NCBI GenBank assembly: GCA_965602015.1
Contig: OZ271918.1
Span: 1,824,001 to 1,888,000, forward strand
Length of the DNA: 64,000 nucleotides
Source of the DNA: Salinispira sp.
GTDB lineage: Bacteria; Spirochaetota; Spirochaetia; DSM-27196; Salinispiraceae
Reading direction: 5' to 3'
Shown: positions 30,852 through 41,489 of the stretch, piece after piece
How the letters are laid out: each line of letters begins with the position of its first letter
How positions within the stretch are numbered: position 1 is the stretch's first letter
The notes under the pieces: model-generated
The model's input: only the letters and a program-made list of their open reading frames with translations
Database searches by the model: none
Told to the model about the DNA's origin: nothing
Position numbers and translations under genes: made by a program

Positions 30852-31715
30852 TCAGGCGTCGATGAAGTCCTGTAAGGAGCTGGCATGCTGGCGGAGTTTT
30901 CTGATGGATCGCATTTCAATTTGCCGGACAGTTTCCGGGCTGACCTCGAGGATGACGGCGATTTCCTTCAGGGTAAGCTTTTCCTGCCCCCAGAGCCCGT
31001 AGCGGTTGATCACTACGAACTGCTCCCGGTCTTCCAAATTGGAAAGCAGCTCGCGCATGGTATCGTTCATGGAGTGGTCGAGCAGCTCTTTTTCCGGGGC
31101 ATAGGAATAATCCTCATACAAGTCGTACATGGTCCCCGCCTCGTTGGAGAGCTGGCTGTCGAGGCTGACCAGGCGCTCGGAAATATTGAGGATATCTACA
31201 ACTTCTTCCCGGGTAATGTGCAGGTATTCGGCGATTTCTTCAGTGGTGGGGGTGCGCATCATTTTCTGGGAAAGAGCATTAAACGCCGCCTGCACCTTTT
31301 TCAAAACATCTTCTTTTCTGTGAGGGATGCGGATTGAACGCCGCTTGTTGCTGATTGCCCGGCTTATGGACTGCTTGATCCACCAGGAGGCGTAGGTTGA
31401 AAATCGCACCTTCTTTCGGTAATCATATTTACTCACCGCGTGCAACAGTCCCAGGTTGCCTTCCTGAACCAGATCGAGCAATCCGATGCCGGAGGACAGG
31501 TACTGTCGGGCGATTTTAACAACCAGCCGCAGATTTGATTCGACCAGACGCTGGCGCGCCTGAGCATCGCCGCCCATTATACGACGGGAAAGATCCAGCT
31601 CTTCCTCGAACTCCAGCAAGGGGTTATCCTTGATCTGCGTAAAATACGCCTGGAGTACGTCGTCGGCGTTTGCTCGTCGAGAGCTTTTAGCTACTGGTGC
31701 AACGGTATCTGACAT
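30852..31715 (-). CDS. rpoS: Group-2 sigma70-family factor, RpoS-like
   Basis: Regions 1.2-4 present (LVESNLRLVVKIA, DLVQEGNLGL, FSTYASWWIKQ, ETVRQIE) with no region 1.1; sigma54 promoter and flgJ neighbour as in Borrelia. Confidence 0.75.
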   Translation of the reverse strand: MSDTVAPVAKSSRRANADDVLQAYFTQIKDNPLLEFEEELDLSRRIMGGDAQARQRLVESNLRLVVKIARQYLSSGIGLLDLVQEGNLGLLHAVSKYDYRKKVRFSTYASWWIKQSISRAISNKRRSIRIPHRKEDVLKKVQAAFNALSQKMMRTPTTEEIAEYLHITREEVVDILNISERLVSLDSQLSNEAGTMYDLYEDYSYAPEKELLDHSMNDTMRELLSNLEDREQFVVINRYGLWGQEKLTLKEIAVILEVSPETVRQIEMRSIRKLRQHASSLQDFIDA

Positions 31716-31736
31716 AATGTCCTCCGAGGACTATAA

Positions 31737-31752
31737 TGCAATTTCCGTGCCA
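31737..31752 (-). promoter_or_regulatory. Sigma54 (-24/-12) promoter of the rpoS-like gene
   Basis: TGGCAC-GGAAA-TTGCA, a full consensus match, 21 nt upstream of the ATG. Confidence 0.88.
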
Positions 31753-31800
31753 GTTTTTGACTATTTTTTCAAGAGATGTAATTCTATATCCTGTAAAGAC

Positions 31801-31827
31801 ATAAATAAAACCGGGCGCTTAACCCGG
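31801..31827 (-). terminator. Probable terminator after flgJ
   Basis: CCGGG-TTAAGCG-CCCGG followed by TTTTATTTAT on the minus strand. Confidence 0.55.
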
Positions 31828-31883
31828 CTATATCGAATTAAATTGTATACTATTTTATACAGTGCTGGTGATTATATTCTTAT

Positions 31884-32207
31884 TTATGAATTCTCTCCGC
31901 CGTCAATGGACCCGGAAAACTGGTTGATAATCATGTCGGCAATCCCAAAGTCTCCCCGTCTGGCGATGTCCCTCGAATATTCAGTATATAGCATGTCTTC
32001 GAATATATCCTCCGCCATGCCCCCGTATGTGAAATTATCTTCCTGATTCCTGGTGTCCCGCATTGAATCGAGCATCATCTTCACAAAAAGTGATTCAAAT
32101 TCCTGGGCAACTTCTTCAAGTTGTTCGCGGTTTCCCGCCGACTCAATGCGCGGCAGATTTGTATTGCTGTTGAGGGCGTCTAACCGGCTTAAGGCTATAT
32201 CAGACAT
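31884..32207 (-). CDS. flgJ: Single-domain FlgJ rod-binding protein (no muramidase domain)
   Basis: LEEVAQEFESLFVKMMLDSMR...EDIFEDMLYTEY...GIADMI. Confidence 0.88.
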   Translation of the reverse strand: MSDIALSRLDALNSNTNLPRIESAGNREQLEEVAQEFESLFVKMMLDSMRDTRNQEDNFTYGGMAEDIFEDMLYTEYSRDIARRGDFGIADMIINQFSGSIDGGENS

Positions 32208-32221
32208 TGTTCGATCCTATC

Positions 32222-33016
32222 CTATCTCTTAAGATTCGCGGCTATGCCCAGCATGGTGTCCGAGGTTTGAATCGCCTTGGAATTGAACTCGTATGCCCGC
32301 TGTGCCACGATCATGTTAACCATTTCCTGGACGGTCTGTACGTTGGACATTTCCAAAAACTTGTGGATGGTCTTTCCCATACCATCGAAACCCGGTTGGC
32401 CTCCGATGGGGTCACCCGACGCATTGCTGACCCGGAAAAGATTTTCTCCAATGGCCTGAAGGCCGGCGGGGTTTACAAAGCGGTAGAGCTCCAGCTGCCC
32501 CACATCAAGGGGGTCATCCTGACCGGGGACCCGTACGGTCACCAGGCCGTCGGCGGATATGGCGATGCTGTCCCGAATAAATCCCTCGGGCATAATAATC
32601 TCGGGAAGAACCCGGTAGCCGTTGCTGGTTACCAGTTGACCGTTGCTATCGATTTTAAATGCTCCGTCCCGGGTATAACCGAAGCTGCCGTCATACTGCA
32701 GCGTTCGAAAAAAGCCCTCGCCCTCTATGGCGATGTCGCTGACATTCCCGGTATTCTGGAGAGAGCCCTGGGTAAAAATCTTCTGGGTTGCCGCAACCCG
32801 CACCCCGTGTCCAACCTGGACGCCCACAGGCACCAGGGTCTGTTCGGTTGCCGGAGTGCCGGCGGTGCGCTGGGTCTGGTACAGCAAGTCCTCAAAATCC
32901 GGACGGTTCTGTTTAAAACCCGTGGTGTTGACGTTTGAAAGGTTGTTCGAGATGGTGTCGATGTTAAACTGCTGGCCGATCATTCCTGACGCCGCAGTCC
33001 ATAGTGATCTCATCAT
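32222..33016 (-). CDS. flgG: Flagellar distal rod protein FlgG
   Basis: MMRSLWTAASGM, SNNLSNVNTTGFK, YTRDG, LEMSNV..VQEMVNMIVAQRAYE. Confidence 0.95.
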   Translation of the reverse strand: MMRSLWTAASGMIGQQFNIDTISNNLSNVNTTGFKQNRPDFEDLLYQTQRTAGTPATEQTLVPVGVQVGHGVRVAATQKIFTQGSLQNTGNVSDIAIEGEGFFRTLQYDGSFGYTRDGAFKIDSNGQLVTSNGYRVLPEIIMPEGFIRDSIAISADGLVTVRVPGQDDPLDVGQLELYRFVNPAGLQAIGENLFRVSNASGDPIGGQPGFDGMGKTIHKFLEMSNVQTVQEMVNMIVAQRAYEFNSKAIQTSDTMLGIAANLKR

Positions 33017-33060
33017 ACCCTATCGCTCCCCTATGTATTCAGCGCGCGCACGCGCGCCTC

Positions 33061-33927
33061 TTAGAATCTCATTGCCTGATTTATTAGTTTATCGGTGGCC
33101 TGATCGTGGGACTGAATCACCTTTTGATTGGCTTCGTAGGCCCGGTTGACCTCGATCATTTTCACCATTTGCTTGATGGCATTTACATTGCTTGTTTCCA
33201 GGAAGCCCTGGCGAACCAGCGCCCTGTCTTCCCCCTCGGCGACAAAGGCGTCGCCGCTATCCCAGGTGGTTCGGTACAGACTTGATCCCTGTTTTTCAAG
33301 ATAGCGTTCGCGATCCACATGCACGATGCGTAGGCGATCGACCTGAACGGTATTCGCCCAATCGTTCTCGGTGATGGACACCAGCCGCCGGGGATCTTCA
33401 GCGAAGTCATCGTTCTGAAAAATTCTCCCCGACTGATCCACGATGAAGTTATTCAGTTTTACGCTTACCGGACCGTTTTCGCCGAGGACCGGGTAGCCTT
33501 CTTTGGTAACCAAAAGCCCCTCGGGACCAATGTGAAAGCTGCCGTTGCGGGTGAGCCGCTCGCCGTATGGGGTCTGAACGGTAAAGAATCCGTCGCCTTC
33601 CAATGCGAGATCAAAGGGATTGGTGGTTTCTTTGAACGAGCCCTGGGAAAAGACCGTATAGACCTCATTTTGTTCCACGCCGGTTCCCAGGGTTCCCACA
33701 ACCGGAGCCCGGTCCACCGAACCCAGGTGAGGCGCGGTCCTGCTTATCGGCAGATGGGTTTCCTCCACCTGCATTCTGCGCAGAAGGAGTTCGGGAAACG
33801 CCTTGTGAACCGAAAGGTCTTCCTTGTATCCGGTGGTATCCACATTGGCCAGGTTGTTTGAAATCGTATCCATGCTGTGCTGTTGAACCACCATACCGGC
33901 GGCTCCGGTATACATTCCGCGTATCAT
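33061..33927 (-). CDS. flgF: Flagellar rod protein FlgF/FlhO
   Basis: MIRGMYTGAAGM, SNNLANVDTTGYK, TRNGSF, QGFLETSNVN...RAYEANQK. Confidence 0.85.
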   Translation of the reverse strand: MIRGMYTGAAGMVVQQHSMDTISNNLANVDTTGYKEDLSVHKAFPELLLRRMQVEETHLPISRTAPHLGSVDRAPVVGTLGTGVEQNEVYTVFSQGSFKETTNPFDLALEGDGFFTVQTPYGERLTRNGSFHIGPEGLLVTKEGYPVLGENGPVSVKLNNFIVDQSGRIFQNDDFAEDPRRLVSITENDWANTVQVDRLRIVHVDRERYLEKQGSSLYRTTWDSGDAFVAEGEDRALVRQGFLETSNVNAIKQMVKMIEVNRAYEANQKVIQSHDQATDKLINQAMRF

Positions 33928-36849: not shown

Positions 36850-37680
36850 ATGGCCATCCACGAACTACATTGTCACAGCACCGCATCCGACGGCAGCCTT
36901 AGTCCCGCGCAACTGGTCACCCGGGCTTCGCAGGAAGGTTTGGCGAGCATTTGCATAACCGATCACGATACCATTGCGGGAATCGAAGAAGCCGAGAATG
37001 CCGCAGCCACCCTCGATCTTGAGGTGATCCCCGGCATCGAGATTGAGATTTCTCATCCCTCAGGGGCATTTCACCTGCTGGGACTCGGAGTTCGTTTTCA
37101 CAAGGGAATTTTGGATGATATCCTTCCCCGCATCATACAAGACCGGGAAATGAGGAACCGGACAATAGCAAAAAAGATGGGGCGCATCGGCGTTCCCGGC
37201 TCGTACGCCGATGTGGTCAAACTTGCCCGGGGAACTGTGGTCGGCCGCCCGCATTTTGCCGAATATCTCATTCTGAAGGGATTCGCCGTCGATACCGCCG
37301 ATGCCTTTGAGCGCTTTTTGGGACCCGGCCAGCCCCTGTACACGCCCCGGGAAGGCATTCCCCTGGATGAAGCCATCGAAAAAATCCATCTGGCAGGGGG
37401 GAAGGCCGTAATAGCCCATCCATCGAGTCTCCATTTGAGCTGGTCAAAGCTACGGCGGGAGCTGGCCGAATGGGTAACCCTGGGCCTTGACGGACTGGAG
37501 GCATTTCATTCCTCCACAAAATACCGGGACGGCCTGAAGTTTCAGGCCATCGCAAGAGATTTTGGTATCCTGGCCACGGCGGGAAGCGATTTTCACCATC
37601 CCGATCAGCCCCACAAGCGCTTAGGGCACCACAGCATTGAGCAGATGGAGATCGGCGATGAGTTTCTGGAGGGATTGTGA
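36850..37680 (+). CDS. PHP-domain phosphoesterase (TrpH/YciV-like)
   Basis: LHCHSTASDG, ITDHDT, PGIE, GRPH, AHP, GSDFH; upstream TTGCCA-N17-TATGCT promoter. Confidence 0.9.
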   Translation: MAIHELHCHSTASDGSLSPAQLVTRASQEGLASICITDHDTIAGIEEAENAAATLDLEVIPGIEIEISHPSGAFHLLGLGVRFHKGILDDILPRIIQDREMRNRTIAKKMGRIGVPGSYADVVKLARGTVVGRPHFAEYLILKGFAVDTADAFERFLGPGQPLYTPREGIPLDEAIEKIHLAGGKAVIAHPSSLHLSWSKLRRELAEWVTLGLDGLEAFHSSTKYRDGLKFQAIARDFGILATAGSDFHHPDQPHKRLGHHSIEQMEIGDEFLEGL

Positions 37681-38624
37681 CAGGCTCCCGGGAGAGGTCA
37701 TGGGCAAACAGATTTCGAGCTTCCGTTTTTACACTGCTGCTTCAAAGTCTATTTATCATTCTCCCCGTTAACGGACAGAGTTTTCCCGAACTGGAAAGCC
37801 TTACCAACAGCGATCCCATCTTCCTTCAGATAATAGATGACATTCAGGCCTTTTACCGCTGGGAGGCCGGGGTTGAAGAGTCGCCGCGGCTGAGCATCTA
37901 TCACTACCGGATCGCAGAATCCGACACCCTGTTTTCCCTGGCCGCGCGATTAAATCTTCCTCAGGCAAGTCTGGCGACCATTAACCGGCTGGACAACCCT
38001 GACCTGCCTCCCCCGGGAAGCCTCATACGCGTACCGAATATCCCCGGCATTTTTATCCCCGAGACCGCGGTAAGCGATTTCGAGCGGATACTCAGTTCCC
38101 GAATACGGGAGGACGGAAGCTTCGAGCTGAGCGAGGTCTTCCGCATTCCCGGCAAGGACGGAACCACCGAAGCCTGGCGATTTATTGTGGCCGGTGATTT
38201 TACATCCCTTGAGCGCCGGGCCTTCCTTCAGGTGCTGTTCCGCGATCCCCTACCGGGAAGCCGGATTTCATCACCTTACGGTACCCGGCTGAGCCCCATA
38301 ACCGGCCGTCCCCAGTTTCACATGGGAATCGATATGGTTGCGCCGGCGGGCACCGAGGTCGGGGCCAGCGCGGAGGGATCGATAATCGACCGGGGTTTTG
38401 ATCCGATTTATGGAAACTACCTCAGCATCGGGCATCCCGGGGGCTACGAGACCACCTATGCTCATTTGGATGAAATGTTTCCGGTTATCGGGCAGACCGT
38501 GAGGAGCGGAGAGCGTATCGGGACGGTGGGCTCCTCCGGGCTTTCCACGGGATACCATCTTCACTTCGAAATACGATATTTAAAGCGGAATCGCGATCCC
38601 CAGGACTACATTCGTCGGGATTAG
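37677..38624 (+). CDS. LysM / M23 family peptidase
   Basis: Signal peptide, LysM (DTLFSLAAR...LATIN), HMGIDM, YAHL, STGYHLHFEI. Confidence 0.9.
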   Translation: MTGSRERSWANRFRASVFTLLLQSLFIILPVNGQSFPELESLTNSDPIFLQIIDDIQAFYRWEAGVEESPRLSIYHYRIAESDTLFSLAARLNLPQASLATINRLDNPDLPPPGSLIRVPNIPGIFIPETAVSDFERILSSRIREDGSFELSEVFRIPGKDGTTEAWRFIVAGDFTSLERRAFLQVLFRDPLPGSRISSPYGTRLSPITGRPQFHMGIDMVAPAGTEVGASAEGSIIDRGFDPIYGNYLSIGHPGGYETTYAHLDEMFPVIGQTVRSGERIGTVGSSGLSTGYHLHFEIRYLKRNRDPQDYIRRD

Positions 38625-38654: not shown

Positions 38655-38681
38655 TAACGTTTTGGCGGGAATTTACGATAA
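38655..38681 (+). promoter_or_regulatory. Sigma28-like promoter of the candidate sRNA
   Basis: TAACGTTT-N11-TACGATAA versus the consensus TAAAGTTT-N11-GCCGATAA. Confidence 0.55.
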
Positions 38682-38686
38682 TAGCA

Positions 38687-38781
38687 GTGTCGGCCGGGGT
38701 ATAGTTCCCCTCCCAGTTTGCTATATTTCCTGGTCGATACCCTTAAGGGTTGGCCGGTTCTAACGAACCGGCCTTTTTTTT
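38687..38781 (+). ncRNA. Candidate small regulatory RNA with C-rich loop
   Basis: ~19 bp stem 38687-38740 with loop UCCCCUCCCAGUUU, palindrome ACCCTTAAGGGT, terminator GGCCGGTTC-TAAC-GAACCGGCC-T8; no ORF. Confidence 0.65.
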
Positions 38782-38813: not shown

Positions 38814-38843
38814 TTGACATTCCTTCGGGGAACGGCGTAATCT
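38814..38843 (+). promoter_or_regulatory. Sigma70 promoter of the PBP1A gene
   Basis: TTGACA-N18-TAATCT, 9 nt before the ATG. Confidence 0.65.
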
Positions 38844-38852
38844 CTACCCTGT

Positions 38853-41489
38853 ATGGCTTTATCTCAAAAAGGAAAAACCCGAATAAAAATTATCGCCGGA
38901 GTACTGGCGTTTTTTGTTGTGGCTTTTGCCGCCGTAATCGGCATCGCCATCGGTTCGACATATAACCTCGAAGGACTCAGCGATTTTAATGAATCCAGCG
39001 CCGCCCTGCCGACTCAGGTCTACGACCGGGACGGGCGCCTGATTACGGAATTCTTCTCCGATGAAAAGCGCGAGTTGATATCCATCGAAGAACTCCCCCG
39101 CCACCTTATATACGCGGTAATTACCCGGGAGGACCGGAACTTCTTCGAGCACTGGGGCGTCAGCATTACCGGCACCACCCGGGCGGCCATCGGTTATTTC
39201 ACCGACAATTTTGTCGGCGGCGGTTCAACCTTGACCCAGCAGCTGGCCACCATGCTCTATCTCGATAAAAGCGATGTGAGCGTCAGTCGGAAACTGCGGG
39301 AAATATGGATAGCCCTTCAGCTTGAGCGGAACTGGTCGAAGAACGAGATTCTCGAGGAATACCTCAATAAATCATGGTTCGGTCACAACACCTACGGGGT
39401 GGAAGCCGCCAGCCAGTTTTTCTTCGGACATTCGGCCCGGGACCTGACAATCGCCGAGAGCATGATGCTGGCGATCCAGCTTTCTTCCACCAGGCGATAC
39501 AGCCCCCTTGTTAACCCCAATGTGGCCCGGGAGCGCCAACGGGAAATGCTCAATGAGATGGTGGTCCAGGGCTATGCGACGCAGGAAGAGGTGGACCGTT
39601 CCTTCGATGAATTCTGGGCGAACTACGATTATACCCGCTCGGGGACCACGACAGCCTTTTTCGAACGCCAGGACCGGGCACCGTACTTCAGCGAACATGT
39701 GCGCTTCCTCCTGGAAAACGAAATTCTCCTGGGAAGTTCGGACATTTATCGGGACGGATACAGCGTCTACACCACGCTGGACCTGGAGTATCAGGACATC
39801 GCCCGGGAAGAACTTCAACAAGGCATAGCCAGCGCCAACGAAATCTACGACCGCAACACCGCCGCCAGGGCGAGTTTTGCCACCGAGGTGTTCGTTCCGG
39901 TTATAGACCTGCTGTCCTTGGGTTTTGATGTAGAGCAGCTTAGGGTCGCCGGTGAAAAACAGCTGCAGGGAGCCAAGCAGTATTTTCAAAATGAACTGAC
40001 TCCCATGGTCGATATGCTCACCCTGCTTACCGACAGCACAAATGTCGGCGGCCTGCGGGAGCTCACCGCCGTAAGTTATGAGTCCAAGGAAGAGAACCAG
40101 AAGCAAAATACCGTCGAAGGGGCCATAATTTCCCTCGAGAACGACACTGGTCACGTTGTCGCCATGATAGGCGGCAACCGCTTCGAGCAGACGAACCAGT
40201 TTAACCGGGCCCTCCAGGCATCGGTTCAACCGGGGAGTTCCTTCAAGCCGCTGTACTACGCAGCGGCCATCGAAGAGGAAGTGGTCACCCCGGCGACCAT
40301 GATCTACGACAGCCCGGTTGTGTTCTGGAACGATGACGGAACTCCCTACACTCCCACAAATTACCGGGGAGAATGGGACGGTCCGGTGCTCACCCGATAC
40401 GCTTTGGCAACAAGTATGAATGTTCCTTCCTTGAGGATCTTGAGCAGGCTCGGATTTGACGACGCCATCGACATTACCTCCCGGCTTTTAAACATCGACG
40501 AGCGGGACCAGGTTGGTCACGGGCTGGTACGCAAGTATCCCATTGGCCTCGGGGTTATTTCCGTGTCGCCGATTATGATGGCCCAGGCCTTCGCCACCTT
40601 TCCCAATGAGGGGCGCAGGGTTACTCCGCTGTTTGTCCGCTACGTCGAAGACCGGACAGGCCGGATAATCGCCGAGCCTGAGAGGCAGCTACGGGAAGAA
40701 CAGGCAAGAATGGGGCGGGAGCTTCAAATAATCAGTCCCCAGACCGCGTACATGATGACAAACATGCTCGAATCAACCATCGATTACGGCACCCTGGCGA
40801 ATCGTCGCCGTCTTGTCGGCGGATTCGACGACATGCCCATTGCCGGAAAGACCGGCACCACCCAGAACTGGTCTGCCCTATGGACCGTCGGCTTCACTCC
40901 CTATTACACCACCGCGGTGTGGATAGGCTTCGATGAGGGTAACAATTCCCTCGGCGTTAACCAAACGGGAGCCGTCACCGCCGGTCCGATTTGGGCGTGG
41001 TACATGAAACGGGTACACGAGGGCATGCAGCCCCGGCCGTTTGTCAGACCCTCCAGTGGCTTGGTCGAACTGGAAGTCACCAGCCGAAACGGACTCCTGC
41101 CTCCGGCGGGATTCCAGGGCTCGACCTACACGGAAATTTTCAGGGAGGGTACCGAACCCCGGGTCTTCGACAGCAGCGAGCAGTTTTACCAAAATGTCGC
41201 CGAGAGCGGAACCCAGAAACTGGAAGTGAATATTCAGGAAGGCCGCCTTGATATCAGCACCATAAACGGGCGGAATATCGGTTCGGCGAACTTCGGCCTG
41301 GAACTCAACCTGGATCTCTCCTTGACACTCGATCCGCTGGTCTTTCCTGATCAGGCGGAGAGCTCCCAATCGCTGAGTTTTGACGATGATTTTTCAAATC
41401 CGTTTTTTGATGACGAGGAAGACCGGGATCTTATTCCGCCCGAGGGCGGCAGTACCAGTGACGACGGTTTTAACCCGTATTTGGACTGA
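38853..41489 (+). CDS. Class A penicillin-binding protein (PBP1A)
   Basis: TM anchor; transglycosylase motifs EDRNFFEHWG, GGSTLTQQL, RKLRE; transpeptidase motifs GSSFKP, SMN, KTG. Confidence 0.95.
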   Translation: MALSQKGKTRIKIIAGVLAFFVVAFAAVIGIAIGSTYNLEGLSDFNESSAALPTQVYDRDGRLITEFFSDEKRELISIEELPRHLIYAVITREDRNFFEHWGVSITGTTRAAIGYFTDNFVGGGSTLTQQLATMLYLDKSDVSVSRKLREIWIALQLERNWSKNEILEEYLNKSWFGHNTYGVEAASQFFFGHSARDLTIAESMMLAIQLSSTRRYSPLVNPNVARERQREMLNEMVVQGYATQEEVDRSFDEFWANYDYTRSGTTTAFFERQDRAPYFSEHVRFLLENEILLGSSDIYRDGYSVYTTLDLEYQDIAREELQQGIASANEIYDRNTAARASFATEVFVPVIDLLSLGFDVEQLRVAGEKQLQGAKQYFQNELTPMVDMLTLLTDSTNVGGLRELTAVSYESKEENQKQNTVEGAIISLENDTGHVVAMIGGNRFEQTNQFNRALQASVQPGSSFKPLYYAAAIEEEVVTPATMIYDSPVVFWNDDGTPYTPTNYRGEWDGPVLTRYALATSMNVPSLRILSRLGFDDAIDITSRLLNIDERDQVGHGLVRKYPIGLGVISVSPIMMAQAFATFPNEGRRVTPLFVRYVEDRTGRIIAEPERQLREEQARMGRELQIISPQTAYMMTNMLESTIDYGTLANRRRLVGGFDDMPIAGKTGTTQNWSALWTVGFTPYYTTAVWIGFDEGNNSLGVNQTGAVTAGPIWAWYMKRVHEGMQPRPFVRPSSGLVELEVTSRNGLLPPAGFQGSTYTEIFREGTEPRVFDSSEQFYQNVAESGTQKLEVNIQEGRLDISTINGRNIGSANFGLELNLDLSLTLDPLVFPDQAESSQSLSFDDDFSNPFFDDEEDRDLIPPEGGSTSDDGFNPYLD

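Follow-up and report, generated by a model that had tools for sequence, protein, structure and literature searches.

The region between a LysM/M23 peptidase gene and a PBP1A gene in a Salinispira genome raises the question of whether it encodes a small RNA of its own and, if so, what transcribes that RNA and which messages its loop could pair with. The region lies in the window, which here refers to the whole stretch of 64,000 nucleotides analysed. A preliminary description made from the letters had proposed a motility-linked, trans-acting RNA with an exposed anti-Shine-Dalgarno (anti-SD) loop, a proposal now backed by conservation, covariation, the promoter, mobility of the unit and sites at flagellar genes. 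The element is real, with support well beyond what a sequence-only reading could show.

When the window letters were re-read, all the features that had been listed were found in place on the + strand. A sigma-28 (FliA)-type promoter motif, TAAC-N15-TACGATAA (38655..38681), consists of the boxes TAACGTTT (38655-38662) and TACGATAA (38674-38681), which are separated by an 11-nt spacer, and the stem begins 5 nt later. The predicted small RNA of ~95 nt (38687..38781), supported by fold and covariation and with its 5′ end inferred from the promoter, starts with a long covarying stem, P1 (38687..38740), that presents the loop and has 13 bp and 6 bp with a 2-nt bulge. In the 13-bp part, GTGTCGGCCGGGG (38687-38699) pairs with TCCTGGTCGATAC (38728-38740), and in the 6-bp extension, TATAGT (38700-38705) pairs with GCTATA (38720-38725). 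The 14-nt loop (38706..38719), predicted to be unpaired, reads TCCCCTCCCAGTTT in DNA and is listed as UCCCCUCCCAGUUU. Its near-invariant 9-nt core, CCCCUCCCA (38707-38715), is the predicted seed. A small variable hairpin seen in the fold, P2 (CCCUUAAGGG, 38740..38749), had not been described before and is absent from some relatives. The unit is closed by an intrinsic terminator (38752..38781), found by terminator scan and supported by covariation, with 9 bp (38752-38773) followed by T8 (38774-38781).

The + strand folds at −44.6 kcal/mol (z = −5.5), and none of 200 shuffles was as good. On the − strand, the long stem fails to form. At the 5′ end, the sole frame that opens with a start codon runs for 5 codons. 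Neither a tRNA nor a tmRNA was detected in the window, and no Rfam 15 family, SRP and 6S RNA included, reached its gathering threshold there (best 24 bits vs 41). Rfam 15 covariance models likewise gave nothing at gathering threshold on 7 homolog loci. No second copy was found in this genome, making the element single-copy.

The structure is conserved in related genomes, and its stems covary. Among the order-level relatives, 57 of 60 were matched by blastn with a 161-nt query (E < 1e-3), and the three misses (G023, G042 and G045) are assemblies that are 74-88% complete. All 30 order-level copies compared, from the window and the 29 best loci, share 16 loop bases without change, with the stems varying. 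Two-sided changes occur in 11 of 26 stem pairs among these 30 sequences, a count reached in 0 of 500 shuffles, the sequences being kin and hence not independent. They extend to 25 of 26 pairs among 92 model-aligned sequences, again a count reached in 0 of 500 shuffles; that alignment was fitted to the model, and one spurious reverse row is among its sequences.

A first covariance model matched 40 of 151 genomes of the phylum at E ≤ 0.1, this genome included, and had no match in the other 111. The best 29-30 of the 40 matches were inspected, and all have the CCCCUCCCA core, the stem and the terminator. Among the weaker matches, G140 was confirmed and G111 and G117 were false, and the 40 also include G180, G194 and G208 on score alone. 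A second model gained G062, G066, G072, G080, G087 and G177, gave short or atypical forms in G065, G069, G081, G084 and G098, and found the RNA in 21 of 24 additional f12-family genomes. When about one third of the named genome collection was scanned by pattern, 120 loci were returned, with ~390 estimated overall. Spirochete titles are borne by 109 of the 120, including Treponema putidum, T. pectinovorum, T. vincentii, Alkalispirochaeta, Salinispira and Rectinemataceae, and all 109 fold into a loop-presenting hairpin. The covariance model matched 93 of 93 spirochete-titled pattern loci and 0 of 7 non-spirochete ones.

The RNA is thus present in other classes of spirochetes too, and its range across the phylum is wide, not universal. 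No copy was found by pattern or targeted search in G071, G074, G076, G079, G086, G089, G091, G094 and G099. Some RNA-negative calls are sensitivity misses, because G064 and G092, which carry a fliF site of the kind described below and were first scored negative, each gave a divergent copy by targeted search. Taken with the fold and the covariation, the element is almost certainly a genuine RNA gene.

Several loci depart from the common form. The copy in G140 (L138:1501-1603), ~1 kb downstream of fliG, has a hairpin inserted in its loop that begins with UGGGAG, complementary to its own seed. Short forms in G098, G069 and G084 (L143, L146 and L147, respectively) have the promoter motif, the CCCCUCCCA core and the terminator without a presenting stem, and are still located upstream of PBP1A. 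In G081 (L149) and G065 (L150), the loop is present and a clear sigma-28 motif is absent, and the fliF gene of G081 lacks a matching site. Under a record title of Mesorhizobium, L205:97-190 has a similar anatomy, with a hairpin carrying a UUCCUCCCCUCCCAC loop, a second hairpin and a terminator; this alphaproteobacterial locus has no sigma-28 motif and is unmatched by the covariance model. Good copies also stand under the titles Desulfovibrionaceae (L167) and ‘bacterium’ (L282), and the former is probably a mis-binned contig, being near-identical to a treponemal copy. Nine exact 17-mer matches in viral contigs (L038-L046) are not RNA copies. In six of the nine, the opposite strand reads as an SD right before an ATG, a number close to a rough chance estimate.

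The assignment of the promoter to the sigma-28 type is supported by conservation of the motif, as a −35 plus −10 motif of this type is found upstream of 66 of 71 copies vs 67 of 5000 random positions. With a stricter promoter pattern, 84 of the 109 spirochete-titled copies pass and 25 fail. In the promoter scan, a sigma-70-like TTAACG-N17-GATAAT overlaps the sigma-28 site of the window. A similar site, TAAC-N15-GGCCGATAC, is located at the flgM gene of this genome (Pfam FlgM), which is the only internal promoter comparator because no sigma-28 motif was found within 450 nt of the three flagellin genes by the pattern used. The mapped sigma-28 promoter PflaB2 of T. denticola is reported as TTAA...CCGATAA (PMC9481697).

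FliA was present in 33 of 33 other genomes tested, with or without detected RNA, and G184 has no FliA above cut-off, no RNA, and neither the fliF site nor other target sites. Co-occurrence of the RNA with FliA thus depends on G184 and adds little. Borrelia is reported to be without sigma-28 (PMC11607428). Both marks of the sigma-28 flagellar sRNA class, a sigma-28 consensus at the RNA and FliA in the genome, are found here. The RNA is very probably sigma-28-driven, and the conserved structured element likely encodes a sigma-28-transcribed small RNA. Elsewhere in this genome, a gene for an 840-aa acidic protein without a Pfam or NCBIfam match (G000:C1:1167276-1169798, L538) has a sigma-28-like promoter (TAAC...GCCGATAC) 44 nt upstream, and is a possible unrecognised member of the sigma-28 regulon.

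Target sites were defined as the loop complement GGGAGGGG (8-mer) at ribosome-binding sites (RBSs), and a 7-mer was scored too. In this genome, only 3 of 28 TGGGAGGGG sites are at a likely RBS, namely those of fliF, fliO and an FHA-domain gene. When RBS duplex energies were ranked over 3363 genes from crude gene calls, fliO ranked 2, fliF 4 and ftsZ 5. On the other hand, flgG, which had been suggested as a target, ranked 620 of 3363 and is not upheld. The stand-alone FHA-domain gene (116 aa; G000:C1:1239967-1240317, L528) has the best predicted loop pairing in this genome.

Across related genomes, which are not independent in these counts, GGGAGGGG precedes fliF in 41 of 50 RNA carriers (for six of the 50, the RNA copy is known from the search match alone) vs 14 of 574 other flagellar starts. 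In 19 more f12 genomes, fliF has GGGAGGGG in 9 and GGGAGG in 18. At the fliO position, after fliY and before fliP, the site is found in 19 of 19 carriers, a count from which three rows with non-adjacent fliY were dropped, the site being seen there too, and in which the identity of fliO was checked by Pfam for this genome. The fliP gene has the site in 8 of 22. For ftsZ, the 8-mer is found in 15 of 25 carriers and the 7-mer in 19 of 25, vs 0 of 5 genomes where the RNA was not found. A conserved complementary site is thus present at target RBSs above background, which is one mark of anti-SD pairing repressors. At most lineage-specific sites are seen at fliI (6/44), fliE (4/45), flgB (2/43) and fliM (1/23), which were rejected as targets. 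G170 was rejected as an RNA carrier without fliF, as a contig end truncates its fliF.

The genes at the fliO position (G000:C1:2110212-2110928, L529; L078-L117) sit behind a GGGAGGGGAA site and mostly have near-cognate starts (CTG, TTG, GTG and apparently ATC). These starts make the gene easy to mis-annotate, and its translation rate is probably low and tightly set.

The seed, being short and SD-like, could pair with many RBSs, and in G090 the 9-mer is common genome-wide. As a pairing RNA, the element might act on SDs broadly and generically, or its main targets might be neither flagellar nor division genes, and the sites at fliF, fliO and ftsZ would be strong-SD conventions maintained for separate reasons. 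Comparable ranks occur elsewhere in this genome, where the FHA-domain gene is first and murF sixth, and the genome-wide site lists cover a few genomes, with at least 30 loci for some of them. However, the conserved bases do not match the 16S tail. Next to the GGAGG of fliF, position −1 is G in 44 of 45 and position +5 is G in 45 of 45, vs 52 of 161 and 41 of 161 control RBSs, respectively. By complementarity, the bases flanking GGAGG follow the RNA loop, not the 16S tail, and the predicted fliF duplex has −22.4 kcal/mol with the loop vs −12.7 kcal/mol with the tail, a gap of ~10 kcal/mol. Moreover, candidates from this genome fail in relatives, as the site is found at zapB in 0 of 22, the 8-mer at murF in 2 of 20 despite its rank, and the 8-mer at other division-cluster genes in 0-1 of 20, and all of these were rejected as targets. 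We consider generic or displaced action unlikely.

The loop and a candidate target also appear to vary together. Most lineages have a loop whose 3′ end is AGUU, and in family f12 this end is ACCC. The RBS of the SpiroCoCo coiled-coil gene (NF047514) contains GGTGG in 22 of 29 f12 genomes vs 0 of 18 AG(U)-loop genomes, and CTGGG in 10 of 18 AG(U)-loop genomes vs 1 of 29 f12 genomes, where 3 of the 29 are without an RNA copy found and 2 of the 18 loops were not read. The flagellar-gene background for the CTGGG/GGTGG comparison is 18/627 and 3/59. Judged from these motifs, the SpiroCoCo RBS changes together with the loop 3′ end, the co-change being one lineage split. At fliF, the ACC end of the loop is matched by two f12 sites that extend as far as GGTGGGAGG. 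G223 has a loop minus two Cs and a fliF site of GGGAGGA, and G215 and G233 have lost one loop C with no matching fliF change.

Action through a protein was considered as well. The RNA would still be real and sigma-28-driven, with its C-rich loop either luring away a nuclease or RNA-binding protein as a decoy or competing with a protein that reads GGGAGGGG sites; translation of these genes might then be raised, not lowered. Consistent with a protein reader, the fliF 8-mer is retained in 5 of 17 genomes without a detected RNA copy (G074, G076, G089, G091 and G094), two of which, G076 and G091, are complete, single-contig genomes. The fliF 7-mer is also found in G071 and G099, where no RNA copy was found. 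G075 and G102 have TGGGGGGAA as their fliF site, which would pair only via G-U wobble. CsrA binds GGA-containing SDs and is reported to do so near the flaB SDs of T. denticola (PMC9481697). Stem ends and the CCGG of a terminator arm are conserved beyond pairing needs, which is also in favour of a protein. Against it, what the RNA bears is complementary to the mRNA site and does not mimic it, and the SpiroCoCo RBS shifts with the loop 3′ end as pairing predicts. In addition, RNA pairing across an SD is established to block ribosomes. Action through a protein is improbable on these grounds, slightly more so than generic anti-SD action.

The unit is independent of its neighbours. Upstream is the LysM/M23 peptidase gene (37677..38624, + strand, by domain search), and downstream is the PBP1A gene (38853..41489, + strand, TIGR02074 above cut-off). 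Several relatives have another gene in place of M23 or carry M23 on the other strand. In L070, the unit is inverted between the same M23 and PBP1A genes, and other neighbours flank it in six loci (L049, L059, L060, L063, L075 and L076). Being flipped or relocated in some genomes, it is not an M23 3′ UTR and not a PBP1A leader. The preliminary description of a self-contained unit holds accordingly, as position and orientation relative to M23 and PBP1A are not fixed, and the unit has its own promoter and terminator, as an sRNA gene does. For the separate PBP1A promoter that had been described, TTGACA-N18-TAATCT is found at 38814-38843, but its −10 is weak and it is absent from the promoter scan list. 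A cis element, either an M23 3′ UTR with terminator or a PBP1A leader or attenuator, would account for the same-strand PBP1A gene that is usually, not obligatorily, downstream (51 of 59 loci) and for a terminator that could also end M23-operon transcripts, but it is largely refuted by the flip in L070 and by unrelated neighbours at six or more loci, the unit keeping its promoter, loop and terminator, and is hardly credible. Elsewhere in the window, at 30852-33927 on the − strand, an RpoS/RpoD-like sigma factor gene has rod genes, presumably flgF/flgG-like and rod-binding-like, directly upstream.

The best explanation is a feedback repressor that pairs over the RBSs of fliF and fliO independently of Hfq, and we regard direct repression of these two genes as probable. 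Hfq (TIGR02383) was found in 0 of 10 genomes. For ftsZ, the site counts tip the balance slightly towards repression, and the SpiroCoCo gene, by virtue of its co-varying RBS, is about equally a marginally favoured target.

In model bacteria, completion of the hook-basal body leads to export of FlgM. Activity of sigma-28 is described as following that completion (PMC11607428). The proposed course is as follows. First, with the hook-basal body complete and FlgM exported, FliA would transcribe the RNA. Second, its 14-nt loop would pair over 10-11 nt across the SD with no chaperone, as the CCCCUCCCA core covers the RBSs of fliF and of fliO (or fliP), and probably those of ftsZ and the SpiroCoCo gene, and translation would be repressed. 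Third, lower FliF and FliO/FliP, for the MS ring and the export gate, would mean fewer new basal bodies, capping flagellar number, and via FtsZ, division would be kept in step with filament building. That all of this amounts to an ancient spirochete checkpoint RNA, in which motor completion shuts off FliF, FliO/FliP and FtsZ plus SpiroCoCo, is a tentative reading that may well prove too broad.

Loops with UCCC are known from RNAIII and RsaE of S. aureus. In Rfam, SorX (RF02784), MmgR/suhB (RF00519) and anti-hemB (RF02837) similarly have a C-rich anti-SD motif followed by a terminator; they are proteobacterial, and their scores, which the terminator drives, are 19-24 bits where the gathering cut-offs are 41-50. 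The closest working model, a likeness by description with no homology claimed, is CJnc170/FlmR of C. jejuni and its paralog (CjNC1/CjNC4), which are reported as sigma-28-dependent and Hfq-independent, with a terminator and predicted RBS pairing on earlier flagellar genes (PMC11187230, PMC4626219). FlmR overexpression is reported to give shorter flagella and less motility. According to the same sources, however, these RNAs have 47 nt compared with ~95 nt here, are confined to thermophilic Campylobacter whereas the spirochete RNA spans many families, and have the sigma-54 genes flgE, flaB and flgP as predicted targets, not the MS ring, export gate or ftsZ. The E. coli RNAs UhpU, MotR, FliX and FlgO are also described as sigma-28-controlled and as tuning flagellar number, FliX, the looser parallel, negatively (PMC10578931). 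Unlike the spirochete RNA, they are UTR-derived and Hfq-bound, and MotR and FliX pair inside coding regions (in fliC and in the S10 operon). The text searched of that paper has no mention of fliF or spirochetes.

A literature search, with subscription journals and some supplements outside its reach, found no description of this RNA and no regulatory small RNA described for treponemes. Term searches in the accessible text of motif-discovery papers (PMC1950547, PMC8632094, PMC11109978, PMC5737381, PMC7160235 and bioRxiv 10.64898/2026.09.22.753630) returned nothing, and one in the accessible parts of PMC8040213 and its supplements gave no match, where the RNA may be present as an unnamed candidate.

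The question addressed is how spirochetes fix their periplasmic flagellar number and tie flagella to division, and work on the link between flagellar building and division has been called for (PMC11607428). The analysis puts forward one conserved RNA, with FliA as its predicted activator, a seed of 9 nt and target sites at four named genes. To our knowledge, it is unusual for a bacterial pairing RNA to persist, together with its target sites and without Hfq, in several classes of one phylum. If the checkpoint reading is true, the RNA would determine, in treponemes and in free-living spirochetes, how many periplasmic flagella are built and when cells divide. The co-evolving site would also place the uncharacterised, spirochete-wide SpiroCoCo protein in a pole/division module, giving a first functional lead for it.
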